NCBI GenBank assembly: GCA_043823435.1
Contig: JBDRAV010000016.1
Span: 1,122 to 65,121, forward strand
Reading direction: 5' to 3'
From: Candidatus Omnitrophota bacterium
GTDB taxonomy: Bacteria; Omnitrophota; Gorgyraeia; Gygaellales; Profunditerraquicolaceae
DNA: 64,000 nt
The notes beneath the pieces are model-generated. The model ran no database searches. It saw nothing but the letters and a program-made list of their open reading frames with translations, and was not told the origin of the DNA. The position numbers were made by a program, and so were the translations under genes. Positions 1,740 to 63,502 of the stretch are shown piece after piece; the first letter of the stretch is position 1; the number at the start of each line of letters is the position of its first letter.

Positions 1740-1904
1740 AGGGACGTCTTTAAATGTAATCGGAAAGCGTTTATGCTATTATTCGAAAGGGTGTCCCCTC
1801 GAGCGACATTTTTCATTCAACTGTCACCTTTTTCCTGTCTGCCCTGTCTGTCCTGACTGCTGTCAGGCAGGGGGAAGGCGGGGGTTGAATTCAATGGTGT
1901 CCCT
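1740..1904 (+). repeat. AGGGAC...GTCCCT-bounded composite element, copy R0 (165 nt)
   Basis: Begins AGGGACGTCTTTA (1740-1752). Contains AAAGGGTGTCCCC (1786-1798), CCTGTCTG tandem words (1834-1850) and the hairpin CCTGAC-tgct-GTCAGG (1852-1867). Ends GGTGTCCCT (1896-1904). Module order matches the copies at 12213 and 34936. Confidence 0.7.
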
Positions 1905-1919
1905 ACTTATTTTATCTGT

Positions 1920-1948
1920 TTGACTTTTTTAGGAAAGGATGTTATGAT
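1920..1948 (+). promoter_or_regulatory. Candidate sigma-70-type promoter for gatCAB
   Basis: TTGACT (1920-1925), 17-nt spacer, TATGAT (1943-1948), about 30 nt upstream of the gatC start. Confidence 0.45.
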
Positions 1949-2298: not shown

Positions 2299-3769
2299 GA
2301 GAAATAATATAGAATTAAACAAGTTAACCGCACATGAGCTTATCGAGAAGATAAAATCAGGAGCAACCAAGCCCGGGGAGATAGTTAGTTCGTTAAAAAG
2401 AAGAATTAAGGATATAGACCATAAAATTAATGCCTACGTACGACATCTTGACTCTGAAGCCCTAGATTCCCAACTCCCAGCTTCCAGCTCCAATCTATAT
2501 TTAAAAGGCATACCTGTCTCTATCAAAGATAATATTTGCACTAAAGGTTATAATACCGAATGCTGCTCTAAGATCCTGGAGGGGTTTAATCCGCCGTACG
2601 ATGCCACAGTAATCAGGAAATTAAAAGAATCTGGTGCGACCGTATTCCCGGTAAAGACCAATATGGATGAGTTTGCCTTTGGTTCATCAACGGAGAATTC
2701 CCGCTATGGCCCGACACATAACCCCTGGGATTTAGAGACTGTTGCAGGTGGTTCTTCTGGAGGTTCGGCATCGGCAGTAGCTTCAGATGAGGCGATAATG
2801 GCCTTGGGTTCGGATACGGGCGGCTCTATCCGTCAACCTGCATCTTTCTGTGGCGTGGTCGGGCTTAAGCCTACTTATGGGAGGGTTTCACGTTATGGGT
2901 TGATTGCATTCGCCTCAAGCCTGGACCAGATCGGTCCCCTCACCAAAGATGTCAGGGATAGCGCGATCTTAATGAATGTCATTTCCGGATACGACCACTA
3001 TGATTCTACTTCCGTAAATATTGATGTGCCGGATTATACCGCATCATTGGGGGCGGATATCAAGGGATTAAAGATCGGCACTCCAAAGGAATATTTTATT
3101 GCTGGTATGGATAAAGAAGTCAAGATAATAGTGGAGGAAGCTATAGATAAACTAAAGAGCCTGGGAGCCGAGCATAAACCGGTTTCATTGCCGAATACCC
3201 GGCATGCAATACCGGTTTATTATGTTGTTGCTACGGCAGAGGCGAGCTCCAATTTAGCGCGCTTTGACGGAGTGCAGTATGGTTTTAGAACCGAGAGCCG
3301 AGAGCCGAGAACCGAGAACCGAGTGATAGATATGTATAAAGGGACACGCGGAGAAGGGTTTGGGCAGGAAGCCAAAAGAAGGATTATTCTTGGAACATTC
3401 GCTTTATCGCACGGATATTACGACGCATATTATCTGCGGGCTCTAAAAGTAAGGACCATGATAAAGCAGGATTTTGACAGGGCCTTTACAAAATTTGATT
3501 GTTTGGTTACCCCTACGTCCCCTACGCCCGCATTTAAAATAGGTGAAAAAGCAAAAGATCCCTTAGAGATGTACCTTTCGGATATATATACCATATCAGC
3601 GAATCTATCGGGGATACCGGCGATATCCGTACCCTGCGGTTTTACCAGTAAGGGGCTGCCGGTAGGATTGCAGATTCTGGCGAAGCCGTTTAACGAAGGA
3701 TTGTTGTTCAAGGCCGCTTATGCATATGAACAAAGCACGGAGTGGCATAAGATGAGCCCCAAATTATAA
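2297..3769 (+). CDS. gatA: Asp/Glu-tRNA amidotransferase subunit A (amidase family)
   Basis: 490 aa. Amidase signature GGSSGGSASAVAS..GSDTGGSIRQPASFCG. Lies between gatC and gatB. Contains two heptamer arrays (2468-2495, 3288-3322). Confidence 0.96.
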   Translation: MRNNIELNKLTAHELIEKIKSGATKPGEIVSSLKRRIKDIDHKINAYVRHLDSEALDSQLPASSSNLYLKGIPVSIKDNICTKGYNTECCSKILEGFNPPYDATVIRKLKESGATVFPVKTNMDEFAFGSSTENSRYGPTHNPWDLETVAGGSSGGSASAVASDEAIMALGSDTGGSIRQPASFCGVVGLKPTYGRVSRYGLIAFASSLDQIGPLTKDVRDSAILMNVISGYDHYDSTSVNIDVPDYTASLGADIKGLKIGTPKEYFIAGMDKEVKIIVEEAIDKLKSLGAEHKPVSLPNTRHAIPVYYVVATAEASSNLARFDGVQYGFRTESREPRTENRVIDMYKGTRGEGFGQEAKRRIILGTFALSHGYYDAYYLRALKVRTMIKQDFDRAFTKFDCLVTPTSPTPAFKIGEKAKDPLEMYLSDIYTISANLSGIPAISVPCGFTSKGLPVGLQILAKPFNEGLLFKAAYAYEQSTEWHKMSPKL

Positions 3770-3773
3770 GATA

Positions 3774-3853
3774 GCACCAGGTGCAAAGCCAATCGGGCAC
3801 CAGGTGCGAGATTAGGTTTGCAGACGGTACAAGATAGGATTGGCACCCGGTGC
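3774..3853. repeat. Phased array of the 11-bp palindrome GCACC-W-GGTGC (four sites, 23-nt period)
   Basis: GCACCAGGTGC at 3774 and 3797, a degenerate GCAGACGGTAC at 3820, and GCACCCGGTGC at 3843. Spacers contain CCAATCGG / GATTAGG / GGATTGG. Confidence 0.8.
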
Positions 3854-12214: not shown

Positions 12215-12394
12215 GGGCGTCTTTATTATTAAAACAGAGATGATTCTAATCCAAAGCAGGGACGACTTTGTTGCCAAAGAAAAGGGTGTCCCTTTTAAGA
12301 TTTTATTTTTAGGGGACACCTTTCGGATTGACAGAAGAAACGGCTTTCCTTTTAGATTCAAAGGCGTCCCCCGATTGAATTTAAAGACGTCCCT
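12213..12394 (+). repeat. AGGGAC...GTCCCT-bounded composite element, copy R1 (182 nt)
   Basis: AGGGGCGTCTTTA (12213-12225, overlapping the acsC TAG stop), GGGACGACTTT (12259-12269), AAAGGGTGTCCC (12281-12292), GGGGACACCTTT (12312-12323), AAAGGCGTCCCC (12360-12371), TAAAGACGTCCCT (12382-12394). The boxes can pair as three nested helices. Confidence 0.8.
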
Positions 12395-16048: not shown

Positions 16049-16120
16049 CGTAGAGCGTTTAGTTCTACTATACGCTAACCGCTACCCCTGCCTGCCGGCA
16101 GGCAGCGCTAAACGCTAAAG
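16046..16120. repeat. acsD-acsE spacer built from heptamer words plus an 18-nt perfect palindrome
   Basis: TAGCGTA GAGCGTT TAGTTCT (16046-16066), the perfect palindrome CTGCCTGCCGGCAGGCAG (16088-16105), and CGCTAAA CGCTAAA (16106-16119). The 14-mer ATAGCGTAGAGCGT and the word CGCTAAACGCTAAA recur at 32998-33061. Confidence 0.8.
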
Positions 16121-16136
16121 ACTGGAGCTTAAGGAT

Positions 16137-34935: not shown

Positions 34936-35098
34936 AGGGACGTCTTTATTACCAAAGCAAAGGGTGTCCCAGATTCAAAGCAAAGGCTGTCCCCTCTTAA
35001 TATGGGCACCCTTATGATTGACGCAAGAAACCACTTCCCCTGCCGGCAGGCAGTGATTGGGTCAGAGGACGTCCCCTGATTGATTTAAAGGCGTCCCT
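34936..35098 (+). repeat. AGGGAC...GTCCCT-bounded composite element, copy R2 (163 nt)
   Basis: AGGGACGTCTTTA (34936-34948), AAAGGGTGTCCC (34959-34970), AAAGGCTGTCCCC (34982-34994), GGGCACCCTT (35004-35013), CCCCTGCCGGCAGGCAG (35037-35053), GGACGTCCCC (35067-35076), AAAGGCGTCCCT (35087-35098). Colinear with R1. Confidence 0.8.
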
Positions 35099-36700: not shown

Positions 36701-37913
36701 GGCGTTAATAGTTCAGAAATTCGGCGGTACCTCCGTAGCTAATGTGGAACGGATACGCAAGGTTGCCCGTCGCGTAGTAAGTTGTCGTAAAAAAGGCTAT
36801 GACCTGGTAGTGGTGGTTTCCGCTTTGGGGGATACTACTGACGAGTTAATTGATTTAGCAAGTAAGATTACCTTTGATCCGTCAGAGCGAGAAATGGATA
36901 TGCTCCTGTCGACCGGAGAGCAGATTTCCGTAGCGCTTCTGGCTATGGCGATACATAAATTAGGATTTGAAGCTATATCCTTTACTGGAGCGCAAGTCGG
37001 GATTATTACCGATACCAGTCATACCCGTGCTCGGATTATAAAAATCAATGCCGAAAAAATAAAAGAAGAGTTAAGACGCGGCAAGATCGTCATTGTGGCG
37101 GGCTTTCAGGGAGTAGCCCTGAATCAGGATATCACTACATTGGGCAGGGGTGGTTCGGATTTGACCGCTGTCGCCCTGGCAAAGGAGCTCTCGGCGCGCG
37201 AATGCGAGATTTATACCGATGTGGAAGGGATATATACTGCTGATCCACGCATAGAGCCGAAGGCCAGGAAAATTAAAGCCATTACCTATGACGAGATGCT
37301 GGAGATGGCTTCATTGGGTGCCCAGGTGATGCAGGCGCGCTCTATTGAAGTGGCAAAAAAGTTCAATGTAGATATACATGTGCGCTCCAGTTTCAATGAC
37401 GAGGTCGGAACAATGATTACCAAGGAGGTCAAGAGAATGGAAGACGTGGTTGTAAACGGCGTAACCCTGAACAAAAATGAGGCCAAGATTACGGTTTGTA
37501 ATGTCCCTGACCGCCCGGGTATAGCGGCAAAGATATTCAAGCAGTTAGCCGATAAAGGGGTAAGCGTAGATATGATAGTCCAGAATGTTAGCCATACCCG
37601 CCAGACGGATATATCTTTTACCATAAACAAAGCAGATGTGTACAAGACTCTGAAGATTGCTAAGAAAGTGGCTATGGGTATAGGGGCAGGGCAAGTATTG
37701 CAGGATAATGATGTTGCGCGGGTTTCTATAGTCGGTGTAGGAATGAAGTCTCATCCGGGTGTCGCAGCTACCATGTTCGATTCTTTAGCGGATAATAAGA
37801 TCAACATCGAAATGATTTCTACCTCGGAAATCAGCATTTCGTGTATTATAAAAAAGAGGTTTGCCGAGAAAGCGGTCAAGGCGTTGCACGACAAATTCGG
37901 CTTATCTAAATAA
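36693..37913 (+). CDS. lysC: Aspartate kinase (with ACT domains)
   Basis: About 406 aa from ATG 36693 (GGAGAAG at 36681-36687; overlaps the cstA stop by 8 nt). VQKFGGTSV, VVVSALGDTTDEL, GRGGSDLTA motifs. Confidence 0.94.
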   Translation: MHKALIVQKFGGTSVANVERIRKVARRVVSCRKKGYDLVVVVSALGDTTDELIDLASKITFDPSEREMDMLLSTGEQISVALLAMAIHKLGFEAISFTGAQVGIITDTSHTRARIIKINAEKIKEELRRGKIVIVAGFQGVALNQDITTLGRGGSDLTAVALAKELSARECEIYTDVEGIYTADPRIEPKARKIKAITYDEMLEMASLGAQVMQARSIEVAKKFNVDIHVRSSFNDEVGTMITKEVKRMEDVVVNGVTLNKNEAKITVCNVPDRPGIAAKIFKQLADKGVSVDMIVQNVSHTRQTDISFTINKADVYKTLKIAKKVAMGIGAGQVLQDNDVARVSIVGVGMKSHPGVAATMFDSLADNKINIEMISTSEISISCIIKKRFAEKAVKALHDKFGLSK

Positions 37914-37971
37914 GGGACACTTCTTGACCCAATCAAGGGACACTTCTCCGGCCAATCGGAGAAGTGTCCCC
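37913..37971 (+). repeat. AGGGACACTTCT-type element (59 nt) with a perfect 13-bp hairpin
   Basis: GGGACACTTCT at 37914 and again at 37937 (23 nt apart). GGGACACTTCTCC (37937-37949), loop GGCCAATC, GGAGAAGTGTCCC (37958-37970). The first A is the last base of the lysC TAA stop. Confidence 0.85.
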
Positions 37972-43161: not shown

Positions 43162-45147
43162 GTGGAAAAATTCAAGTTAGTCTCTGATTATAAGCCTTGC
43201 GGCGACCAGCCCAGGGCGATAAAAGAGCTATCTGGCTCGATTGGGTCGGGTAATAAGCACCAGACTCTGCTCGGCGTGACCGGATCCGGGAAGACCTTTA
43301 CTCTGGCCAATGTTATCGCCAGGATAAACCACCCTACACTGGTTATCTCCCATAATAAAACCCTGGCCGCGCAACTCTATTCGGAATTCAGGGAATTCTT
43401 CCCGCATAACGCCGTAGAATATTTTGTCAGTTATTACGATTATTATCAGCCCGAGGCATATATACCTTCAACAGATATATACATAGAAAAGGACGCTTCT
43501 ATTAACGACAGGCTGGACCGCCTGCGTCTTTCTGCGACCACTTCGCTTATGTCACGCCGCGATTGTCTTATTGTGGCTTCTGTGTCTTGCATATATAATC
43601 TTGGTTCACCGGACGAATACCGCGATTTACTTGTTCTTGTTGAAAAAGGGGAGTCTGTGTCGCGCGATAACTTGATATCAGGACTTGTTAAAATACAATA
43701 TGAGAGGAACGATTACGAGTTTATCCGCGGGAGGATAAGGGTCAGGGGCGATGTCGTAGAAATATTTCCTTCGTATGAAGAGGTCGCGCTGCGTCTAGAG
43801 CTTTTCGGAGATAAGGTAGAGAAGATATCGCAGATAAACCCTGTTTCGGGAGAAGTCCTGAATTCCCTGGATAGGATAGCGATATATCCGGCCAAACATT
43901 TTATATTCTCAGGAGAGGGGCTTGGCAGAGCGCTTAAGTCTATCGGGCAGGAGTTAGAAGAGAGGCTGAATATCTTAAGGGGTAAGAATAAATTATTGGA
44001 GGCCGAGCGCCTTGAATCCCGCACTAAATATGATATGGAGATGCTTAAAGAGATAGGCTATTGCCATGGTATCGAGAATTATTCGCGGCACCTTTCAGGC
44101 AGACCTCAAGGCTCAAGGCCGTATTGCCTCATTGATTATTTCCCGGATGATTTTCTCGTGGTAGTCGACGAGTCTCACGTAACCTTGCCTCAAATAAGGG
44201 GCATGTATGAAGGTGACCGCGCCAGGAAAGAGGTGTTAGTAGAATACGGATTCAGACTCCCCTCATGCCTCGATAACCGGCCTTTGAAGTTTGAAGAATT
44301 CAGGGACATAGTAAAACAGCAGGTATTCGTTTCCGCAACGCCCGATGAATACGAGATAAAAAATAGCCAGGGTCTTGTCATTGAGCAGATTATCCGGCCT
44401 ACCGGCCTGGTTGACCCTAAAATTATAATCAAGCCATCCGATGGCCAGATCGAAGACTTGATTAAAGAAGTAAAGAAGCGTGCCCGACGAAATGAGCGCG
44501 TCCTTATCACGACTTTAACTAAAAAATTGGCCGAAGACTTAAGTGTCTATTTACAGGAGAAGGGATTAAAGGTAAAATATTTACACTCCGAGGTAGAGAC
44601 TATTGAACGTTCAAGGATTCTCAGAGAATTAAGGCGTAAAGAATTTGATTGCTTAGTGGGAATAAATCTGTTAAGGGAGGGCCTGGACCTGCCCGAAGTT
44701 TCCCTTGTCGCAATATTGGACGCAGATAAGGAAGGTTTCTTGAGATCCGCTACTTCGCTGATACAGGTATCCGGGCGTGTAGCGCGCAATATAAACGGGA
44801 CCGTGATCATGTATGCCGATACCGTAACTGGCTCAATGAAGAAGGCAATCGCCGAAAGCGAAAGGAGAAGGGATAGGCAGTTCGATTTTAACAGGAAAAA
44901 TAAGATTACGCCGCGGTCTATTAAGAAGAGCATAAAACATGGGATAGAGGATTTAGAAGGAGCGCAGGAATTTGTGGCAGATTTAACCGGCCAGGATAAA
45001 GATGAATATGAATTAAGCAGGTATATTTCGGAACTAGAATACGAGATGGAACTTGCAGCGAGGAACCTGCAGTTTGAGAAAGCAGCGGTAATCCGCGATA
45101 AGATAAGAGACCTAAAACCGATCAACAGTAACAGGGACACTTCTTGA
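43162..45147 (+). CDS. uvrB: Excinuclease ABC subunit B
   Basis: 661 aa. [13 protein letters not shown]-terminal UVR domain ([11 protein letters not shown]). GTG start. The last four codons and the TGA stop lie inside the repeat at 45133. Confidence 0.97.
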
Positions 45148-45249
45148 CCCAAAGTAAGAAGTGTCCCCTAGAAGGTAATCTTAAGTAAATGGGGACATTT
45201 CTCCGATTAGCATGAGAAGTGTCCCTCGATTGGGACGAGAAGTGTCCCT
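45133..45249 (+). repeat. AGGGACACTTCT-type element (117 nt) with three hairpin units
   Basis: GGGACACTTCT (45134-45144) / AGAAGTGTCCC (45157-45167). GGGACATTTCTC (45192-45203) / GAGAAGTGTCCC (45214-45225), with one G-U pair on the plus-strand transcript. GGGAC (45232-45236) / GAGAAGTGTCCCT (45237-45249). The first 20 nt are identical to 37913-37932. Confidence 0.85.
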
Positions 45250-45263
45250 AAGAGGGAGGAGAG

Positions 45264-46043
45264 GTGCTGTTAGCCGTTGATATAGGAAATACGAATATAA
45301 ACCTGGGATTATTCAAAGATAAGAGGATAATCAAAAGATTTATTATTCTTACGAAAGCCGGGCATTATAAGCTTCGCCTTCAAAAGATAATTAAGCGTAA
45401 TAAGGTTGATGACGCAATAGTCTGCGGCGTAGTTCCGGCGGCCGAAGAGGCCATAGGAAAAGCGCTGAGGGGATCCCTGGGTAAGCGGCCCTATATTATA
45501 GGTAAGGGGATAAGGGTGCCTATAAAGAACATTTACCGGAAGCCCCGCCAGGTAGGAGAGGACCGCCTAGTAAATGCCTATGCAGGAGTTATGCTCTACG
45601 GCGCACCGCTCATTATGGTTGATTTCGGTACCGCGGTCACATTTGATATTGTTTCAAGAAAGAAAGAGTACCTCGGGGGCATGATCATCCCGGGGCTTGG
45701 GATATCCCTGGAAGCTCTTAATATGCGGACAGCACTTCTGCCTAAGATAAAACTGGAAGAGCCTAAGGAATTCATAGGCCGGGACACTAAAAACAGCATG
45801 TTAAGCGGGATAATTTACGGGTTCGCCGCTCTCAGCGATGATCTGGTTACGAGAATAAGGCAGAAGATAGGAAGAAATGCGAAGGTAATCGGCACTGGCG
45901 GTAATATCGGCTTAATTGCTAAATACTGCCACAGGATAGATAAGATAGATAAGGATTTGACCCTAAAAGGCCTGAGCCTTATTTATAGAAATTTGTTAGA
46001 TTCTGCGGTAATGTATCGTAGCATTAAGGGGAGTATTCATTAA
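45264..46043 (+). CDS. coaX: Type III pantothenate kinase
   Basis: 259 aa. LLAVDIGNTN, VDFGTA, GTGG motifs. GTG start after GAGGGAGGAGAG. Confidence 0.93.
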   Translation: MLLAVDIGNTNINLGLFKDKRIIKRFIILTKAGHYKLRLQKIIKRNKVDDAIVCGVVPAAEEAIGKALRGSLGKRPYIIGKGIRVPIKNIYRKPRQVGEDRLVNAYAGVMLYGAPLIMVDFGTAVTFDIVSRKKEYLGGMIIPGLGISLEALNMRTALLPKIKLEEPKEFIGRDTKNSMLSGIIYGFAALSDDLVTRIRQKIGRNAKVIGTGGNIGLIAKYCHRIDKIDKDLTLKGLSLIYRNLLDSAVMYRSIKGSIH

Positions 46044-46055
46044 TAAAAATTTTCC

Positions 46056-46083
46056 TTGACAAAAAATTTTTTTCTTTTATAAT
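46056..46083 (+). promoter_or_regulatory. groESL promoter (sigma-70 type)
   Basis: TTGACA (46056-46061), 16-nt spacer, TATAAT (46078-46083). It abuts the CIRCE operator. Confidence 0.7.
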
Positions 46084-46109
46084 TAGCACTCTGGAATTAA
46101 GAGTGCTAA
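46083..46109. promoter_or_regulatory. CIRCE operator (HrcA binding site)
   Basis: TTAGCACTC-TGGAATTAA-GAGTGCTAA is a perfect match to the CIRCE consensus TTAGCACTC-N9-GAGTGCTAA. It lies between the promoter and groES. Confidence 0.95.
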
Positions 46110-46199
46110 TTATAGTCCATAGTTGATATTCCAAGCAGCACAGTTAAAAATAGATGTTAGGGACCAAGAACCAATAATTAATTAAAGGAGGTGTAAGAG

Positions 46200-48145: not shown

Positions 48146-48175
48146 ACCGCAGATTCTGGGAATAAGCAATAAAAA

Positions 48176-48206
48176 GGGCGAAGCCAATGCTTCGCCCTTT
48201 TGCTTT
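48176..48206 (+). terminator. Rho-independent terminator of groESL
   Basis: GGGCGAAGC-caat-GCTTCGCCC (9-bp GC-rich stem) followed by TTTTGCTTT. Confidence 0.85.
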
Positions 48207-48213
48207 ATGGGGG

Positions 48214-48270
48214 GGGACAGGTGCCCGATTGGATTTGCACCTGGTGCCAGATTAGCTTTGCACCAGGTGC
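48214..48270. repeat. Phased array of three GCACC-W-GGTGC-type palindromes (23-nt period), inverted relative to the 3774 array
   Basis: GGGACAGGTGC (48214, a hybrid GGGAC/GGTGC box), GCACCTGGTGC (48237), GCACCAGGTGC (48260). Spacers contain CCGATTGG and CAGATTAG. Confidence 0.8.
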
Positions 48271-48282
48271 AAAAAATAATTA

Positions 48283-48311
48283 TTGACAAGATTGCGGCAT
48301 TAAGGTAAAAT
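48283..48311 (+). promoter_or_regulatory. Candidate promoter for the guaB-like/guaA operon
   Basis: TTGACA (48283-48288), 17-nt spacer, TAAAAT (48306-48311). It would give a leader of roughly 150 nt. Confidence 0.5.
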
Positions 48312-51167: not shown

Positions 51168-51171
51168 TTTG

Positions 51172-51262
51172 GTTCGCAAGTTCGTAAGTTCTTCAGTTCG
51201 TAAGTAATTAAAGAATTGTTATGAACCAATGAACTTTAGAACTAAAGAGCAATAGAGCTTTT
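51172..51262. repeat. Two opposed octamer arrays filling the guaA-dnaE spacer
   Basis: GTTCGCAA GTTCGTAA GTTCTTCA GTTCGTAA (51172-51203), then GAACCAAT GAACTTTA GAACTAAA GAGCAATA GAGCTTTT (51223-51262). GTTC and GAAC are reverse complements. Confidence 0.75.
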
Positions 51263-51263
51263 A

Positions 51264-54200
51264 ATGCCTCACTCCGACTTCATCCACCTCCATCTACATA
51301 CCCAATACAGCCTTCTTGACGGCGCCTGCCGTATTCCCAAGCTTTTAGAGCGGGCAAAGCAATATAAGATGGATTCCCTTGCCATTACCGACCATGGCAG
51401 CATGTTCGGCGCAATAGATTTTTACCTGGAAGCCCAGAAGGCCGGTATAAAACCCATTATAGGATGCGAGATGTATATCGCACCATCAAGCCGCCTGGAG
51501 AAGGCATCCGCAGGTATTGATGAAGCAGCATACCATCTTATACTTCTTGCGCGCGATGAAGCCGGATACCAAAACCTGATAAAACTTGTATCCATAGGGT
51601 ACCTGGAAGGTTTTTATTACCGGCCGCGCATTGACAAAGAAATCCTATCCCAGCATCAGAAGGGCCTTATTGCTATGACTGCCTGTCTTAAAGGAGAAAT
51701 ACCCTCATTCTTACAGCAGAGGCGTTTTAACGACGCCCTGAAGACCGCTGATGATTTCCTGAATATTATGGGTAAAGAAAATTTCTACCTGGAGGTACAG
51801 GGCAACAGCATCCCAGAGCAGAAGATAGTAAATGAAGGATTGATAAAAATATCCAAAGAGCTGAACATACCGCTTGTCGCTACCAACGATGTGCATTACC
51901 TTTCAAGGGAGGATGCCGTAAGCCACGAAGTCTTGCTCTGCATCCAGACCCAGTCCACGCTGAATGACCCTAACAGGATGCGTTTCCAGACTGACGAATT
52001 CTATTTCAAATCCCCTCAGGAAATGAAGGAGCTTTTTAAGGATATACCGCAAGCGCTCGCTAATACTCTGGAGATTGCCGGCCGCTGCAATTTAGAGCTG
52101 GACTTTTCCAAGATGCATTTACCGCGCTATGATCCACCCGATGGCAAAAACAAAGAAGATTATTTAAGAGAACTTAGTGAAATAGGATTAAAGGAAAAAT
52201 TCCCGGAAGCGACCCCCGATATAATGACGCGCCTAGAACACGAACTAGGCCTTATTAAAGACAGAGGATTTGTAAGTTATTTCCTGATCGTCTGGGATTT
52301 CATACACTACGCAAAGAATAATAATGTTCCCGTCGGCCCGGGGCGTGGCTCAGTTGCGGGGAGCCTAGTAAGCTATCTTCTCGGGATAACAGATATCAAT
52401 CCTTTGAAGTACGGGTTGCTTTTTGAGCGCTTCCTTAACCCTGAGAGGCTTGGTCTCCCCGATATTGATATTGATTTCTGTTACGAGAGAAGGAACGAAG
52501 TCATTGATTACGTGACCAGAAAATACGGAAAAGGAAACGTTGCCCAGATCATCACATTTGGAACAATGCAGGCGCGCGCGGTAGTCAGGGACGTGGGCAG
52601 GGTAATGGGGATGAGCTATGCCGACGTTGACCGTATCGCCAAGATGATACCTCCTGATCCTGGTATTAGTCTCAAAGACGCATTAGAAAGCGAGACCGAA
52701 CTAGGAAAGCTTTATAGAAATGATACGCAGATAACTAAGTTGATCAATACCGCCATCTCCCTGGAAGGCCTTAACCGCCACGCCTCCACGCATGCCGCGG
52801 GTGTTGTCATTTCCGATAAGCCTCTGGATAACTATACGCCTTTGTTTGAGACCCAGGACGGACAGATAACCACCGGCTACAGCATGGGGGTCCTGGAAAA
52901 GATAGGTTTGCTGAAGGTAGACTTTCTGGGATTACGTACACTGACCGTGATCGATGAAACACGCAAGATAATAGAAAATACCAGGGGCATAAAAATAGAC
53001 ATTAAAAACATCTCTCTTGATGACGGCAATACTTATAAGCTTCTGAATTCAGGCCAGACTATCGGGGTCTTTCAGGTAGAGAGTTCCGGCATGCGCGACT
53101 TATTGAAAAAACTCCAGCCTGACCGTTTTGAAGACTTAATCGCGCTACTTGCTTTATACCGTCCCGGTCCTATCGGTTCGGGCATGCTTGATGATTTTAT
53201 GCAGCGCAGGCACGGACGCGTGTCCATAAAATACCAACACCCGAAGCTGGAAAATGTTCTTAAGGAGACTTATGGTATAATCGTATATCAGGAACAGATC
53301 ATGCAGATAGTTTCCGAACTCGCCGGATTCAGCCTCGCGCAGGCAGATATGTTACGCCGCGCCATAGCCAAGAAGATACCCGAGGTTATGGAACAACAGA
53401 GGAAGAACTTTATTTTAGGATGCATCAAAAACGATATCAGCGAATCCGTATCAAACCGTATATTCGACCTTATAGAGTATTTTGCAGGATACGGATTTAA
53501 CAAATCGCATTCAGCAGCGTACGCCATGATCTCTTACCGTACGGCATACCTGAAAGCTAATTTTCCGGTAGAGTTTATGTGCGCGCTCCTTACCTCAGAA
53601 AGAGACAATACCGACAAGATAGTTGAATATGTAAATGAATCCTACCGTATGGGGATAAAAGTCCTGCCTCCCGATATCAATGAAAGCGAGGCTCTATTTA
53701 AGGTTGTGGACGAGAAGACAATACGTTTTGGTCTGCTTGCGGTGAAAAACGTAGGGGGCGGAGCTGCCGAATCCATAGTCAGCTCAAGGCAGGAGGGGGC
53801 GTTTAGCTCCCTGGAGGATCTCTGCCAGCGCATTGACTCAAGGCTGGTTAACCGTAAGGTCCTGGAGAGCATGATAAAATGTGGTGCGCTGGATTCATTT
53901 GGTTTGCCAAGGGCGCAGATGTTTGTTTCTCTTGCCACAATCATGGAGATATCTTCCAGGGCGCAAAAGGATAAGGCAAAAGGGCAGATCTCATTCTTTG
54001 ACGCAGGGTTCGCGGAAGATTCATTTAAGAGCACGGCAAACAATTTGCCCTCCATAAAAGAGTGGCCCGAGCCGCAACTGCTTGCTTTTGAGAAAGAGAT
54101 GCTGGGATTTTACGTTACGGGACATCCTCTGGCGCGCTATGCCCATGAACTTAAACGCTTTACCTCTTCATCCACGGCTAACCTCCACGAGCATGAGGAC

Positions 54201-54698
54201 GGCAGAGAGATAAAGATAGTAGGGTTAATTGCCAAAATCAAACAGACAGTTACCCGCGCGAAACAGGAGAAGATGGCTATATTGAAATTAGAGGATCTTG
54301 ATGGAGCTGTTGAGGTTCTAGTTTTTCCGGCTGCCTTCCAGAAATCTTCAAGATATATCCAGCCCAGTACCGTGGTCCTTGTGAAAGGCAGGGTTGACCG
54401 TAGGGAGGATATACCTAAAATCGTAGCCAATGACCTTTTTCCTATGGACGAAGTATATAAATTGGTCACCAGCGTAAATATAAACCTTTCAGGAGTACGC
54501 GAAAACCTTTTTGAGAGCTTAAAAGAGTTGTTGGTTCAATACCCCGGTAAGATACCTATATATATGCACATGGATACGCCTGCCAGGTCAAGGGTGCATC
54601 TTGTTGTCGGGGAAGGGCTTTACGTTTCTCCTTCCGATAAATTAATCCGGGAGATAGAATCGCTGTTAGGCGAGGACCGCGTATCTTTAGTGATATAG
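51264..54698 (+). CDS. dnaE: DNA polymerase III alpha subunit
   Basis: 1144 aa. PHP domain FIHLHLHTQYSLLDG, catalytic GPGRGSVAGSLVSY..DIDIDF, OB fold near the C-terminus. Confidence 0.97.
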   Translation: MPHSDFIHLHLHTQYSLLDGACRIPKLLERAKQYKMDSLAITDHGSMFGAIDFYLEAQKAGIKPIIGCEMYIAPSSRLEKASAGIDEAAYHLILLARDEAGYQNLIKLVSIGYLEGFYYRPRIDKEILSQHQKGLIAMTACLKGEIPSFLQQRRFNDALKTADDFLNIMGKENFYLEVQGNSIPEQKIVNEGLIKISKELNIPLVATNDVHYLSREDAVSHEVLLCIQTQSTLNDPNRMRFQTDEFYFKSPQEMKELFKDIPQALANTLEIAGRCNLELDFSKMHLPRYDPPDGKNKEDYLRELSEIGLKEKFPEATPDIMTRLEHELGLIKDRGFVSYFLIVWDFIHYAKNNNVPVGPGRGSVAGSLVSYLLGITDINPLKYGLLFERFLNPERLGLPDIDIDFCYERRNEVIDYVTRKYGKGNVAQIITFGTMQARAVVRDVGRVMGMSYADVDRIAKMIPPDPGISLKDALESETELGKLYRNDTQITKLINTAISLEGLNRHASTHAAGVVISDKPLDNYTPLFETQDGQITTGYSMGVLEKIGLLKVDFLGLRTLTVIDETRKIIENTRGIKIDIKNISLDDGNTYKLLNSGQTIGVFQVESSGMRDLLKKLQPDRFEDLIALLALYRPGPIGSGMLDDFMQRRHGRVSIKYQHPKLENVLKETYGIIVYQEQIMQIVSELAGFSLAQADMLRRAIAKKIPEVMEQQRKNFILGCIKNDISESVSNRIFDLIEYFAGYGFNKSHSAAYAMISYRTAYLKANFPVEFMCALLTSERDNTDKIVEYVNESYRMGIKVLPPDINESEALFKVVDEKTIRFGLLAVKNVGGGAAESIVSSRQEGAFSSLEDLCQRIDSRLVNRKVLESMIKCGALDSFGLPRAQMFVSLATIMEISSRAQKDKAKGQISFFDAGFAEDSFKSTANNLPSIKEWPEPQLLAFEKEMLGFYVTGHPLARYAHELKRFTSSSTANLHEHEDGREIKIVGLIAKIKQTVTRAKQEKMAILKLEDLDGAVEVLVFPAAFQKSSRYIQPSTVVLVKGRVDRREDIPKIVANDLFPMDEVYKLVTSVNINLSGVRENLFESLKELLVQYPGKIPIYMHMDTPARSRVHLVVGEGLYVSPSDKLIREIESLLGEDRVSLVI

Positions 54699-55334: not shown

Positions 55335-56603
55335 ATGTTTAAAAGGACCCCGGGAACAAAAGACATATTGCCCGAAGAAGTATCCTCCTGGCAGGAGATA
55401 GAGAGGGTTACTCGTAGGATCTTTTCCCTCTACAATTACAGCGAAATACGGCCTCCCATCATCGAAGAAGCGGCATTATTCTCCCGGTCATTAGGGGAAT
55501 CGGCGGAGATAGTCCAGAAGCAGATCTTCCTGATAAAAAATGATAAGGATTTTTATGCGCTGAGGCCCGAGGGTACGGCTTCGGTGGTACGGGCATACAT
55601 TGAGAATAATCTGGACAAGAGCTCTGGGTTAGCAAAGGTTTATTATATAGGCCCGATGTTCAGGGCGGAACGCCCGCAAAAGGGGAGGTTGCGCCAGTTC
55701 CATCATCTGGGTTGCGAGATGATCGGTTCGGGTGCCCCGGAGGCGGATATAGAGGTTATCTCTCTTACAGATAACCTGCTTAAGGCTTACAGGATAGAAG
55801 GCTATGAAATCAGAATAAACAGTCTTGGTTGCGCCAAAGATAAAAAGGAATTGACAGAGGTTATGCGTAAGCGCCTTAAGGATAAACATAATAAGCTCTG
55901 CGATGACTGTAAGATAAGGTTTGGGCGCAATGTCCTGCGGATTTTGGATTGCAAAAACGAAGAGTGCGTCAAGATCGTCCAAAGCCTGGAGATGGGAGAC
56001 GGCCATCTTTGCGCGGATTGTAAAGGGCATTTTCATAAAGTAAAAGGGGGGCTGGATTCATTAAGGGTGGATTATAAAGTTAACCCTTATCTTGTGCGCG
56101 GCCTGGATTATTATACCCGCACTGTGTTTGAAATCGTGCATAACGGTCTGGGCGCCCAGAATGCCCTGGGAGCGGGCGGAAGATATGACAACCTGGTCAG
56201 TGAATTAGGCGGCCCTGACCTTAGCGCCATAGGTTTTGCCTTTGGAATAGAGAGGCTATTATTAGTCAGGAGATCGGAGCCAGGAGTTCAAAGTAACAAT
56301 TTAGTTTACCTTATCACTTTAGGAGAAGAAGCCAAAAAGAAGGGCTTAAAGATATTGGAATATTTGCGTAAAAAAGATATTTGCGCGGATACGGATTACG
56401 AAGGTAAATCCCTGAAGGGTGCTATGCGTAAGGCGAATGATTTAAGGGCGAAATATGTTTTAATTCTCGGAGAGGAAGAGCTGAAAAATAATATCCTGAC
56501 TTTAAAAAATATGATTTCGGGAGAGCAGAAAGAAATTAAACATGAGAATATGCTGGAGGAATTACAAACCTGTAACTCCAAACTCCAGACTCCAAACTCA
56601 TAA
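55335..56603 (+). CDS. hisS: Histidine-tRNA ligase
   Basis: 422 aa. Class II motifs (FRAERPQKGRLRQFHH, GGGRYD). The C-terminal tail CNSKLQTPNS is encoded by a heptamer array. Confidence 0.95.
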   Translation: MFKRTPGTKDILPEEVSSWQEIERVTRRIFSLYNYSEIRPPIIEEAALFSRSLGESAEIVQKQIFLIKNDKDFYALRPEGTASVVRAYIENNLDKSSGLAKVYYIGPMFRAERPQKGRLRQFHHLGCEMIGSGAPEADIEVISLTDNLLKAYRIEGYEIRINSLGCAKDKKELTEVMRKRLKDKHNKLCDDCKIRFGRNVLRILDCKNEECVKIVQSLEMGDGHLCADCKGHFHKVKGGLDSLRVDYKVNPYLVRGLDYYTRTVFEIVHNGLGAQNALGAGGRYDNLVSELGGPDLSAIGFAFGIERLLLVRRSEPGVQSNNLVYLITLGEEAKKKGLKILEYLRKKDICADTDYEGKSLKGAMRKANDLRAKYVLILGEEELKNNILTLKNMISGEQKEIKHENMLEELQTCNSKLQTPNS

Positions 56604-62344: not shown

Positions 62345-63271
62345 ATGAAAATCGTTATCGTCGGTCCCGGAGCAATGGGAAGTTTATTCGCCGCCTTTTT
62401 GTCAAAATCCAAAGAAGAGATATGGCTTCTAGATAAGAATAAGGAGCGCGCAAGCCGCATACAGCAAAACGGGATATCCGTGGAGGGCGTTTCAGGCAAT
62501 TGGCAGGCCGCAGTAAAGGCAACTGCCGATGCCAAAGAGATAGGGGAGGCGAATCTGGTAATAATCTGCGTTAAGTCTTATGATACTAAAGAAGCGATGC
62601 TACACGTCAAACCTATCGTAGGAGAAAACACCAGGGTTCTTACGTTGCAAAACGGTATCGGCAATATAGAAATACTGAATGAAATAGCAGGCAGCGATAA
62701 AGTAATCGGAGGAGCGACTAACCTTGGCGCGACGCTATTGGATGCGGGCAAGGTAAGGCATGCCGGGCGCGGGGAGACGGTTATCGGCCGCATCGATGGG
62801 AAGATCCCCGTTGAAATGCGCTCTATCCGCGAGTTATTCAATAAAATCCGCCTTGAGACCAGGATATCGCGCGATATTAAAGGCTTATTATGGTCAAAGC
62901 TGATCATCAATGTAGGGATAAACGCGCTTACTGCTATCACGCGCTTAAATAACGGAAGGTTAGTGGAATTTGAGGGGACACGCAGGATATTGCGTAATGC
63001 AGTCACGGAAGCAATCCGTGTAGCCAAGAGAAAGAGGGTTAAGCTTATCTACGATGACCCGCTGGCTAAAGTAGAGGCAGTCTGTGAGGCAACTGCAACC
63101 AATGTATCCAGCATGCTGCAGGATGTATTGAAGAAGAAGCGCACCGAGATAGATTTTATTAATGGGGTGATCGTGAGGCAGGGGCAGGAGCTCGGTATCC
63201 CCGTGCCTGCGAATTCATTGATCGTTGACTTAGTCAAAACCATCGAAGCTAGTTATAAATTAATGGTCTAG
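62345..63271 (+). CDS. panE: 2-dehydropantoate 2-reductase
   Basis: 308 aa. MKIVIVGPGAMGSLFA Rossmann motif, VKSYD, SMLQD..K..TEID motifs of the ApbA/PanE family. Confidence 0.9.
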   Translation: MKIVIVGPGAMGSLFAAFLSKSKEEIWLLDKNKERASRIQQNGISVEGVSGNWQAAVKATADAKEIGEANLVIICVKSYDTKEAMLHVKPIVGENTRVLTLQNGIGNIEILNEIAGSDKVIGGATNLGATLLDAGKVRHAGRGETVIGRIDGKIPVEMRSIRELFNKIRLETRISRDIKGLLWSKLIINVGINALTAITRLNNGRLVEFEGTRRILRNAVTEAIRVAKRKRVKLIYDDPLAKVEAVCEATATNVSSMLQDVLKKKRTEIDFINGVIVRQGQELGIPVPANSLIVDLVKTIEASYKLMV

Positions 63272-63340
63272 GGACTGTCCCCGAGATATTGCTCTTAGCG
63301 GGTTGTTCTTAGGGGATTGTTCCTAAACAGTTCTTTATTT

Positions 63341-63502
63341 TGCGTGTGTCTTGGTTTGTTTCGTGCAGCACCGCTCGAAATTCCCCAGCGTGGAATTTCT
63401 CGCTTCAAGAAACTTCTCGCTCTCGCAGACTTCGCATTACAAGGCGAACCCTGCCCGCTCGAACTTTCTAGATGCTGCCCGAACCAACCCAATCCACCCG
63501 CG
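63341..63502. repeat. 29-bp imperfect inverted repeats enclosing a 104-nt GC-richer core (candidate structured RNA or MITE)
   Basis: The left arm TGCGTGTGTCTTGGTTTGTTTCGTGCAGC (63341-63369) matches the reverse complement of GCTGCCCGAACCAACCCAATCCACCCGCG (63474-63502) at 22 of 29 positions. The core holds GAAATTCC-ccagcgt-GGAATTTC and the direct repeat CCGCTCGAA. Confidence 0.55.

Follow-up and report, generated by a model that had tools for sequence, protein, structure and literature searches.

In well-studied bacteria, small palindromic repeats influence how operons are built, how stable mRNA is and how plastic the genome is, and almost nothing is known about such repeats in candidate phyla like Omnitrophota, a phylum which to our knowledge has no cultured representatives. 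Repeats of the REP/BIME type in Enterobacteria and Pseudomonas are short imperfect palindromes found only in the gaps between co-directional or convergent genes. They are present in many copies, in both orientations and in several sequence subfamilies per genome, and form dimers or clusters with short conserved linkers, a mosaic in which the number of units varies from strain to strain. REPs carry an unpaired GTAG or CGTC tag at the palindrome end, with an 8-9-bp stem and a loop of 4-5 nt behind it (PMC3733652); in the passages quoted from that paper Omnitrophota is not among the phyla named, the full list comprising eight phyla. Iterons are direct repeats of ~20 bp set at a fixed distance of roughly two helical turns, clustered at one origin beside a rep or dnaA gene with an AT-rich unwinding region, and bound by Rep. 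Pneumococcal BOX elements are built as boxA - boxB(n) - boxC, with distinct terminal modules and a boxB of 45 nt, and mycobacterial MIRUs have a module of 46-101 nt; both are modular intergenic elements inside operons, in which the copy number of one module varies by locus or strain and stable secondary structures are possible.

The analysis covered 64 kb of one Omnitrophota genome, hereafter the window, together with scattered relatives, and a full-text search of the literature found no description of repeats such as those below in Omnitrophota. An earlier note on this DNA had pointed to boxes of differing sequence that follow each other at exactly 23 nt. On re-reading, the 23-nt steps were borne out for the boxes at 3774, 3797, 3820 and 3843, for the inverted array at 48214, 48237 and 48260, for the pair at 37914 and 37937 (both GGGACACTTCT, with a further inverted copy at 37960), and for the GTCCC boxes at 12366/12389, 34966/34989 and 45221/45244; the GTCCC pair at 35071/35093 is 22 nt apart, as the note had said. 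In the first array, labelled GCACC-W-GGTGC in the note, the box at 3820 is degenerate (GCAGACGGTAC, 7/11) and that at 3843 has C instead of W at its centre. The spacers were said to contain GATTG or its complement nearly always, which agrees with the count (GATTG or CAATC in 7 of 11, GATTAG in 3 and only GATTC in one). The arrays and related elements of the window are as follows.

1741-1903, forward strand: related element upstream of the gatC promoter (-35 TTGACT at 1920), with GGGACGTCTTT (1741), AAGGGTGTCCC (1787), a CCTGTCTGC/GCAGG palindrome and AATGGTGTCCC (1893).
3774-3853, no strand assigned: four-box array in the gatA/gatB gap, read from the sequence and by TRF (period 23); 11-nt boxes GCACCAGGTGC (3774), GCACCAGGTGC (3797), GCAGACGGTAC (3820) and GCACCCGGTGC (3843); 12-nt linkers AAAGCCAATCGG (3785, reverse orientation), GAGATTAGGTTT (3808) and AAGATAGGATTG (3831); left flank TAAGATA, right flank TAGGATA.
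12259-12393, forward strand: composite element of ~135 nt in the cdhD/RACo gap; hairpin GGGACGACTTT...AAGGGTGTCCC, AT-rich spacer, GGGACACCTTT-CGGATTGACAG-AAGAAACGG..., and at its end AAAGGCGTCCC (12360), CCGATTGAATTT and AAAGACGTCCC (12383).
34937-35097, forward strand: second copy of the composite element, in the pgm/cstA gap; additional 23-nt unit AAGGGTGTCCC (34960), AGATTCAAAGCA, AAGGCTGTCCC (34983), a CTGCCGGCAGGCAG insert and a terminal pair at 35065/35087, 22 nt apart.
37914-37970, no strand assigned: F-F-R array after lysC, found by TRF; GGGACACTTCT at 37914 and 37937, inverted AGAAGTGTCCC at 37960, linker TGACCCAATCAA and loop CCGGCCAATCGG; perfect 14-bp stem at 37937-37970.
45134-45167, no strand assigned: single hairpin over the uvrB stop codon, GGGACACTTCTT - GACCCAAAGT - AAGAAGTGTCCC, conserved in L107 and L185.
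45192-45248, no strand assigned: F-R-R array upstream of coaX, found by TRF; GGGACATTTCT, CCGATTAGCATG, AGAAGTGTCCC, TCGATTGGGACG, AGAAGTGTCCC.
48214-48270, no strand assigned: array found by TRF between the predicted groEL terminator (48172-48201) and the predicted guaB3 promoter (48283-48311); boxes GGGACAGGTGC (48214), GCACCTGGTGC (48237) and GCACCAGGTGC (48260), linkers CCGATTGGATTT and CAGATTAGCTTT; perfect 14-bp inverted repeat with a loop of 12 nt.
63272-63282, forward strand: lone box GGACTGTCCCC right behind a stop codon.

A periodicity check of the window gave an excess at lag 23 over block shuffles. Exact direct 9-mer repeats at this lag are present at 5 independent loci vs 0.27 in the shuffles (Poisson p = 9e-6), and 10-mer repeats in 4 independent gaps vs 0.057 (Poisson p = 4e-7); no shuffle reached 5 loci with 9-mers at any lag. 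TRF called period 23 at four arrays (3796-3851, 37912-37957, 45214-45266 and 48218-48270). Lags 14 and 21 also peak, their source being heptamer repeats. All arrays are intergenic, and GTGTCCC is the top intergenic-enriched 7-mer of the window, with 8 copies observed vs 0.04 expected from coding DNA. In ~600 kb of other Omnitrophota loci no lag-23 excess was found except in L001 and L202, and a phylum-wide 23-nt periodicity was therefore rejected.

Each 23-nt unit is composed of an 11-nt box and a 12-nt linker with the consensus CCGATTGGnTTT, and ten clean units read box - [C/T][C/T/A]GATT[G/A][G/A]... - box in either orientation. Across arrays the linker is better conserved than the box, and the boxes of one array are identical or reverse-complementary, so that the arrays are hairpins with an extra copy of arm plus loop (23 nt). 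The earlier note missed the nature of the boxes as hairpin arms; since they are arms, the period is that of arm plus loop. It was right in presuming one underlying cause behind the common period despite the differing boxes: the box "families" are one repeat family, one homologous 23-nt module underlies every array, and a bridge between the GCACC and GGGAC families is provided by the hybrid box at 48214 (GGGAC-A-GGTGC). The composite elements, which begin with GGGACGTCTTT and end with AAAGRCGTCCC, include an AT-rich spacer and a CTGCCGGCAGG module, and their GATT cores are out of the 23-nt register. Units of arm, loop and arm (34 nt) are present in at least eight gaps of the window, all intergenic.

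Perfect stems of 12-14 bp are formed at 37937-37970, 45134-45167 and 48234-48273, and z-scores of -5.0 and -5.3 were obtained in RNA folding; the array at 3774 reaches -37.1 kcal/mol as RNA (z = -5.0), with box 1 pairing with box 4. In ten hairpins from seven genomes 95.5% of cells pair and a two-sided change is seen in 9 of 11 pairs, a level reached by 0 of 500 shuffles and compared with 39-59% in slid registers, the count being partly circular because the hairpins were picked for being inverted repeats. The sole part of the covariation evidence without selection bias is the orthologous comparison. At uvrB/coaX, the boxes are GGGACATTTCT and twice AGAAGTGTCCC in the window, and GGGGACACCCT and twice AAAGGGTGTCCC in the congener L206 (UvrB 86% and CoaX 70% identical); all three boxes changed together, while the layout and the CGATTGG linkers (in L206 CCGATTGGCAG and TCGATTGGCAG) were kept. 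The modular anatomy, the shared linker and the complementarity and co-variation of the arms are matters of observation. Moreover, CCGATTGG is strongly conserved across arrays and species (window, L001, L202, L203 and L206; in L203 it is carried by the counterpart of the 1741 element). A purely structural or selfish model leaves this conservation unexplained, which suggests a linker-recognising factor; a putative protein could possibly recognise the conserved CCGATTGG linker or the box.

Comparison with related Omnitrophota demonstrated length steps in multiples of 23 as well as presence and absence at orthologous gaps. The gatA/gatB gap is 96 nt long with four boxes in the window vs 27 nt with one box in L203, between the same flanks, the difference of 69 being 3 x 23. 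The same gap is empty in L204 and L205 (2-4 nt), measures 0-10 nt in most Omnitrophota, and holds unrelated palindromic inserts in L201, L202, L001 and L005. In L206, CGATTGGCAGAAAGGGTGTCCCT stands twice in tandem with one linker base differing, a near-perfect 23-nt duplicate. Together with the gatA/gatB lengths, this directly supports the copy mechanism with a fixed 23-nt unit that the earlier note had listed as a candidate. The uvrB/coaX element is F-R-R in the window and L206 but only F-R in L107 and L185, and the region at 12282 is homologous to 34960-34993 except that it has one unit fewer. L206 lacks the groEL/guaB3 array at 48214, and homology picks up exactly behind its last box. The composite element occupies one set of gaps in the window and another in L001: the copy at 12259 aligns with 34937-35097 and with L001:11310-11440, both in other gaps, and also with the orthologous gap of L202. 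A candidate target duplication is seen at gatA/gatB only (TAAGATA vs TAGGATA in the window, TAAGATA vs TAAGTTA in L203); at the other arrays of the window no clear flanking target-site duplication was found.

Compared with the known systems, the 34-nt units in at least eight gaps are short extragenic palindromes of the REP kind, and the alternation of boxes with the CCGATTGGnTTT linker corresponds to a mosaic organisation; the arrays further share with REP/BIME sequences the restriction to gaps between co-directional or convergent genes, the multiple copies and subfamilies in both orientations and the variable number of units. However, the units begin with GGGAC or GCACC, usually then TA, without GTAG, and CGTC is found inside some boxes only, never as a terminal tag with an 8-9-bp stem and 4-5-nt loop. 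The arms are 11-14 bp long and the best-conserved part is the 12-nt loop, whereas in REPs a conserved stem encloses a loop of 4-5 nt; the repeat unit is just 23 nt, and the window contains no RAYT gene. As in MITEs, there are terminal inverted repeats, formed by the GGGACGTCTTT and AAAGRCGTCCC ends of the composite elements and by the inverted boxes that bound the simple arrays, and presence or absence at orthologous sites is seen for gatA/gatB, groEL/guaB3 and the composite element. Likeness to MITEs and to ISNCY ends (NF033594) extends to the 11-13-nt box (T)AGAAGTGTCCC(C), to two direct copies 23-26 nt apart, to inverted copies forming hairpins, to presence or absence at orthologous sites and to a possible short target duplication at one site. 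Unlike BOX and MIRU, the arrays have a 23-nt module of unrelated sequence, and arm and loop alternate without distinct terminal modules. A CRISPR array, which would have identical repeats of 21-48 nt, unique spacers of similar length and cas genes or a leader, was ruled out, the repeats being 11 nt, the spacers 12 nt and conserved, and the units 2-4 per array.

Taken together, the arrays probably make up a family of short intergenic palindromes of the REP/BIME/MITE kind, restricted to this lineage and varying by whole 23-nt units. The building block is a hairpin in which two complementary 11-nt arms enclose a 12-nt loop (consensus CCGATTGGnTTT), and duplication or deletion of arm plus loop (23 nt) would give the F-F-R, F-R-R and four-box arrays, the likely route being slipped-strand mispairing or unequal exchange between identical arms. 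The phase is identical whatever the arm sequence because arm and loop lengths are equal in every member. The arms, which differ between arrays and match within one, are presumably kept matching by conversion or by the need to pair. The elements occupy, in either orientation, the short gaps that separate co-directional housekeeping genes, and some of these gaps gain, exchange or lose an element over time. Slippage may well be the copying step. However, the linkers inside one array are ~60-75% identical while its boxes are nearly identical, so that simple recent slippage does not suffice for every array, and the boxes must in addition be under constraint or conversion. Spread to new gaps may have proceeded through a trans-acting enzyme; neither RAYT nor another transposase was found in the window. 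The hairpins may protect mRNA 3' ends, insulate genes from each other, or have no role. In Rfam only tRNAs were found at gathering scores, with nothing meaningful on the arrays at E up to 5. Among viral contigs there was no element-like match and the GCACC unit had 0 matches; a phage origin was rejected, the 34 GTGTCCCYCGATTGG matches looking like chance within longer non-repetitive sequence (flanks judged by eye).

Such a family is easy to read, as the loop is conserved, the arms are swapped as matched sets and growth is in exact 23-nt steps, and it is a convenient system for the origin and spread of such repeats in compact genomes. The arrays may mislead gene callers as well as motif and regulon searches, and variation in unit number could provide strain markers.

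It is improbable that the arrays are iteron- or operator-like, with a host protein that binds cooperatively every 23 bp, to the CCGATTGG linker or to the boxes, and acts on nearby promoters or chromosome structure. The GATTRG core is invariant at 3-4 positions in all units, conserved in L001, L202, L203 and L206, and present in both orientations as for a double-stranded DNA site. Two arrays stop 12-16 nt upstream of strong -35 boxes (48270 vs 48283; 1903 vs 1920), and in four species the distance between an R box and the gatC -35 is similar. However, the iteron-like cooperative binding offered in the earlier note found no direct support: the arrays are dispersed among housekeeping genes in many unrelated gaps, at least eight on the chromosome, with direct and inverted copies and hairpins, and the window has neither a rep gene nor an origin signature, the cumulative GC skew being monotonic without a switch. 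Moreover, most arrays lie inside operons directly before the ribosome-binding sites of unrelated housekeeping genes, close relatives lack arrays or have unrelated inserts at the same gaps, which is unexpected for a conserved regulatory site, the GATT cores of the composite elements are not in the 23-nt register, and in other genomes the same box recurs with a period of anywhere between 13 and 43 nt. L001 has two CCGATTGG cores at a distance of 23 nt whose neighbouring and intervening boxes, three in number, all differ, so that box identity is not required. A cis-regulatory RNA, in which alternative 5'-leader hairpins (F with R1 or R2) control translation or termination downstream, is highly improbable. 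The last box mostly ends 0-20 nt before a ribosome-binding site or start codon, and the F-R-R and F-F-R layouts allow mutually exclusive hairpins. Sense-strand G-U wobbles make up ~8 of 10 single-sided stem changes in a hand count, which is not significant (~8 vs 2, p ~0.05) and could also result from mutational bias, and a strand-specific wobble bias was therefore rejected as evidence for an RNA role. However, the element at 37914 is as a whole in reverse orientation relative to that at 45192, so that the same element stands in both orientations relative to transcription, one array lies between a predicted terminator and the next predicted promoter, the elements are inserted and lost at orthologous gaps, and Rfam holds no match. 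The genes downstream (gatB, RACo, cstA, cimA/leuA, coaX and guaB3) are functionally unrelated, and a regulon was rejected on this ground; promoters and intrinsic terminators within the arrays were likewise rejected, consensus scans placing none and regional counts equalling those of shuffles.

It is possible, if unlikely, that a DDE transposase of the ISNCY/IS1202 kind binds to the boxes and that the arrays are non-autonomous (MITE-like) or relic copies of IS ends, the 23-nt phase being the spacing required between two subterminal sites and the box families reflecting diverged transposases; this could double as the spreading mechanism of the palindromic repeat family favoured above. A metagenome scan for two copies of AGAAGTGTCCC, which in other bacteria is the subterminal repeat of an ISNCY-type insertion sequence, gave ~27 distinct ends of one IS family. 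Both ends have the form TGT-N10-TAGAAGTGTCCCC-N12/13-TAGAAGTGTCCCC, the transposase scores 368 bits against NF033594 (ISNCY family), and the box is kept though the transposases are only 33-100% identical; the identity of the box with the IS is partly by construction since the box itself was the query. A 17-bp target duplication was seen in L085, vs the 7 bp suggested for the arrays. An R-R-loop-F layout is also present in the L156 copy, as is a CCAAAG+box motif like that of Omnitrophota hairpin loops, and hairpin-type elements on other contigs show direct box pairs at 23 (x4), 24, 25 and 28 nt. However, the IS boxes run AGAAG..GTCCCC inward from each end (R-R...F-F), opposite to the F...R of all Omnitrophota arrays; the arrays lack a TGT terminus 13 nt outside the boxes, are spaced at 22-23 nt vs 25-26 in the IS, and carry GATTGG in their linkers, unlike the IS. 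No transposase gene lies near the arrays, and neither the window nor ~600 kb of Omnitrophota loci gave a transposase match. Of the 120 best homologues of the L156 transposase most lack an organism name, and the four that have one are all from outside Omnitrophota. The GCACC-W-GGTGC family has no IS counterpart, and the joint change of all three uvrB/coaX boxes in the congener fits pairing better than a fixed protein specificity. A profile search linking arrays and IS ends (nhmmer E = 0.005) was discarded as circular, the IS ends having been retrieved with the box. It appears distinctly unlikely, too, that a trans-acting protein mobilises or maintains the modules by reading the CCGATTGG loop or the GTGTCCC arm core structure-dependently and puts up with complete exchange of the arms; a candidate would be a domesticated protein related to the ISNCY/IS1202 DDE transposases with the same 11-13-mer end-binding box. 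If true, the link to an ISNCY-type box would provide a second, DDE-based route to REP-like repeats, and reading by a trans-acting protein would amount to a version of the REP-RAYT partnership based on a DDE transposase. A TGTTG terminus beside the box at 12270 is absent from other copies and was therefore judged to be chance. With periods from 11 to 43 in the metagenome scan, a universal 23-nt spacing of the AGAAGTGTCCC box was rejected; the modes were 31 (one gut element, ~38 copies) and 25-26 (the IS family), and period 23 was dominant only among hairpin-type elements.

The boxes of the window are genuinely phased at 23 nt, and the signal is statistically solid. GatB and GuaB3 of this Omnitrophota chromosome stretch match proteins of an Omnitrophota MAG in NCBI at 100% identity. 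When the coordinates were re-read, start-to-start distances of exactly 23 nt were confirmed at 3774/3797/3820/3843, 48214/48237/48260 and 37914/37937 and in the GTCCC box pairs 12366/12389, 34966/34989 and 45221/45244; the spacing of 22 nt reported for the pair 35071/35093 was also correct. Two boxes are non-canonical, that at 3820 (GCAGACGGTAC) with a 7/11 match and that at 48214 being the hybrid GGGACAGGTGC. Period 23 was called independently by TRF at four loci. Within the window, exact 9-mers recurred at lag 23 at 5 independent loci against 0.27 in block shuffles (p = 9e-6), and exact 10-mers at 4 against 0.057 (p = 4e-7). GTGTCCC was the top intergenic-enriched 7-mer (8 observed, 0.04 expected). 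Further lag peaks at 7, 14 and 21 were due to heptamer repeats. Tandem heptamers were found at 3287-3323 (AGAACCG x5), 32831-32858 (GCTCCAA x4), 32993-33022 (TAGCGTA x4) and 56574-56599 (AACTCCA x3.7); two or three of them are inside ORFs, and they recall cyanobacterial STRR repeats.

The earlier note had attributed the period shared by box families of differing sequence to one underlying cause, and this is supported in that all arrays are built from one box-linker module. Ten units, oriented by their spacer, followed the common pattern box (11 nt), [C/T][C/T/A]GATT[G/A][G/A]..., box (11 nt), so that the spacer represents a conserved linker (consensus CCGATTGGnTTT), which across arrays is better conserved than the boxes. 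GATTG or CAATC was present in 7 of the 11 spacers, GATTAG in three, and only GATTC in one. Linkers were found in both orientations (in reverse complement at 3785, 37925 and 37948, for example), the 37914 element is an inverted version of the entire 45192 element, and the hybrid box GGGAC-A-GGTGC at 48214 connects the GCACC-W-GGTGC and GGGAC families.

Arrays, stems and composite elements in the window (F and R, box orientation)
37914-37970, array, F-F-R
45192-45248, array, F-R-R
37937-37970, 45134-45167 and 48234-48273, perfect stems of 12-14 bp
12259-12393 and 34937-35097, composite elements (about 135-160 nt) that share homology with one another and with L001:11310-11440 (a database locus)

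Within any array the boxes are identical or reverse-complementary, and any of the palindromic GCACC-W-GGTGC boxes is able to pair with any neighbour. Array folds were much more stable than those of shuffles (z = -5.0 and -5.3). Two 11-nt arms around a 12-nt loop thus form the basic hairpin element, and the 23-nt period equals arm plus loop. Composite elements combine parts of hairpin arrays with an AT-rich spacer and, optionally, a CTGCCGGCAGG palindrome. A recurring palindromic module, CCTGCC(TGCC)GGCAGGCAGG, was seen at 16083-16110, 35038-35060 and 1834-1875 and in contig L164 (1395-1420), at times nested inside GGGAC hairpins or composite elements.

Arms were paired at 95.5% of positions, with two-sided changes in 9 of the 11 pairs, in 10 hairpins from 7 genomes that had been picked as inverted repeats, the unbiased part being the orthologous comparison of the window with its congener L206. 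This level was reached by none of 500 shuffles, and slid registers gave 39-59%. The closest species-representative genomes by GatB are Omnitrophota with at most 69% identity. More distant Omnitrophota loci, about 600 kb in total, showed no lag-23 excess, and the module is therefore specific to the genus-level lineage of the window.

Orthologous gaps were informative about how the arrays change. The gatA|gatB gap is 0-10 nt in most Omnitrophota and 2-4 nt in the loci L204 and L205 (GatB 80%). In L203 (GCA_043809665.1, GatB 82%) it is 27 nt, GATA GCACCAGGTGT TAAGTTAATACT, with a left flank identical to that of the window, a single box and a homologous 12-nt tail. The gap in the window is 96 nt with four boxes, 69 nt longer and thus exactly 3 x 23; either three units were gained, or box 1 recombined with box 4 and three were lost. 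This difference and the near-identical tandem 23-mers of L206 directly support the fixed 23-nt copy unit proposed in the earlier note. The array flanks (TAAGATA/TAGGATA in the window, TAAGATA/TAAGTTA in L203) might represent a 7-bp target duplication that has decayed, the sole such case.

The uvrB|coaX gap retains two GGGACAYTTCT hairpins in L107 (UvrB 78%) and L185. In L206 (UvrB 86%, CoaX 70%, GroEL 95%) it has the F-R-R layout and 23-nt period of the window and shares both of its linkers (CCGATTGGCAG and TCGATTGGCAG), with all three boxes altered jointly to GGGGACACCCT / AAAGGGTGTCCC. The two 23-mers of L206 differ only at the first base of the linker and therefore resemble a recent unit duplication or homogenisation. 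The groEL terminator and the guaB3 promoter flank the GCACC array at 48214. L206 lacks this array: homology picks up precisely past its final box, and a different insert, 330 nt long, is found. The composite element occupies cdhD|RACo in the window and L202, and RACo|cooC in L001. Insertion polymorphisms of this kind show spread into new gaps.

Other palindromic inserts occur in the gatA|gatB gap of L201 (85%), L001 (69%), L202 (83%) and L005, including word palindromes and a 140-nt MITE-like element. In word palindromes, a 7-10-nt word is repeated several times in direct orientation and then in inverted orientation, the word differing by gap and species (window 32989-33063, 51168-51263 and 16049-16136; L001:570-715; L201:8328-8473); they occupy the same type of gap as the 23-nt arrays and may have a common generative process. 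Three gaps in a 17-kb stretch of L202 (5473-5612, 8359-8536 and 11745-11888) hold a MITE-like palindromic element of 140-180 nt (ends AATGACAAATGTCAAAGCACAAAAT...). A non-coding 150-nt stretch at 63347-63496, after the gene at 62345-63271, is 71% identical to L206:9548-9695 in groEL|guaB3; it is unannotated, lacks any match in Rfam and may represent another mobile element or an undescribed RNA. In four related genomes, a terminal ..GTCCCTAYTTAT.. box remnant precedes the gatC -35 (TGTTTGACTTTT) by 14-18 nt; L201 is one of these and has no other box in the gap.

Box remnant upstream of gatC
Window 1893-1925
L203:8140-8175
L201:6470-6500
L202:3555-3590

The arrays are considered here as a modular palindromic repeat family, an explanation fairly ordinary in kind. 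The common phase would result from common descent, every array copying one arm-loop module, so that gain or loss of units would always be 23 nt. Identical arms at a fixed distance are a classic substrate for slipped-strand mispairing or unequal exchange, processes expected to leave the kind of 3 x 23 difference and duplicated unit seen at gatA|gatB and in L206. Arms match inside an array and are replaceable as a set, as would be expected if pairing is selected for or if dispersed copies undergo conversion; in line with this, further loci in the window, L001 and L202 carry the ACCCTT arm variant found in L206.

The main rival, which could also be a partner of this explanation, is that the arrays are MITE-like derivatives of an ISNCY-family insertion sequence. 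When metagenomes were scanned for paired AGAAGTGTCCC copies at a distance of 13-43 nt, at least 120 contigs matched. Among the matches listed, box periods were 11 to 43, the mode at 31 representing one human-gut element (about 38 near-identical copies) and that at 25-26 the ends of a single IS family. The gut element is an iteron-like tandem repeat of 31-32 nt (AGTTGTGCAGAAGTGTCCC plus about 12 nt), seen in L087, L088, L092 and about 35 further human-gut contigs among the matches listed.

Insertion sequence carrying the box
L085:1750-3190 and about 25 further soil contigs (L082-L197) among the matches listed, ISNCY-family IS (NF033594), two 13-nt direct repeats TAGAAGTGTCCCC per end, spaced 25-26 bp and preceded by a TGT terminus

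Both IS ends have the architecture TGT-N10-TAGAAGTGTCCCC-N12/13-TAGAAGTGTCCCC and enclose an ISNCY-family transposase (NF033594, 368 bits); one copy (L085) has a 17-bp target duplication. Since the box is kept at these ends although transposase identity ranges from 100% down to 33%, the 11-13-mer is most likely a conserved putative transposase-binding repeat in other phyla. Derivation of the arrays from such an IS is favoured by the copy in L156, with an R-R-loop-F layout and the CCAAAG+box motif found in Omnitrophota loops, and by hairpin-type elements of other contigs, in which neighbouring direct boxes are spaced by 23 nt in four cases, followed by 24, 25, 28 and 31. However, box orientation is opposite (F...R in Omnitrophota arrays, R...F in the IS), the arrays have no TGT termini, GATTGG is missing from the IS linkers, and the GCACC family has no IS counterpart. 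Moreover, the ISNCY transposase was found neither in the Omnitrophota DNA examined nor among the named top homologues, and the box identity between IS and arrays was imposed by the query. The iteron-like reading of the earlier note is disfavoured, as the window has no origin or rep gene and the arrays are dispersed, with inverted copies. Cumulative GC skew climbs monotonically across the window, which therefore contains neither origin nor terminus.

The modular repeat family has known parallels: the window elements resemble REP/BIME clusters in behaviour, as they do modular repeats of the pneumococcal BOX type. Unlike REP, they have a conserved loop and variable arms, and by the GTAG/CGTC tag that defines REP membership (PMC3733652) they fall outside that class. 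CRISPR identity was rejected, as was phage derivation after a search of viral contigs; no Rfam family matched the arrays, and a full-text literature search gave no account of such repeats in Omnitrophota. Unusual features are the conserved CCGATTGG loop, arms swapped as matched sets, exact 23-nt steps, and a box common to ISNCY insertion-sequence ends.

By analogy with REP/BIME, the elements may protect the 3' end of upstream mRNA or insulate between genes. One array in an apparently untranscribed spacer and the occurrence of elements in both orientations argue for primary constraints at the DNA level. Sense-strand G-U wobbles (about 8 vs 2 by hand count) were in weak excess, which was not significant.

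The window genes are almost all on the + strand, with short gaps. A perfect CIRCE/HrcA operator (TTAGCACTC-N9-GAGTGCTAA) is present at 46078-46114, between a consensus sigma-70 promoter (46056-46083) and groES. DnaE of L206 (12829-17529) has 1566 aa and an intein with a LAGLIDADG domain; that of the window (51264-54698) has 1144 aa and is intein-free.
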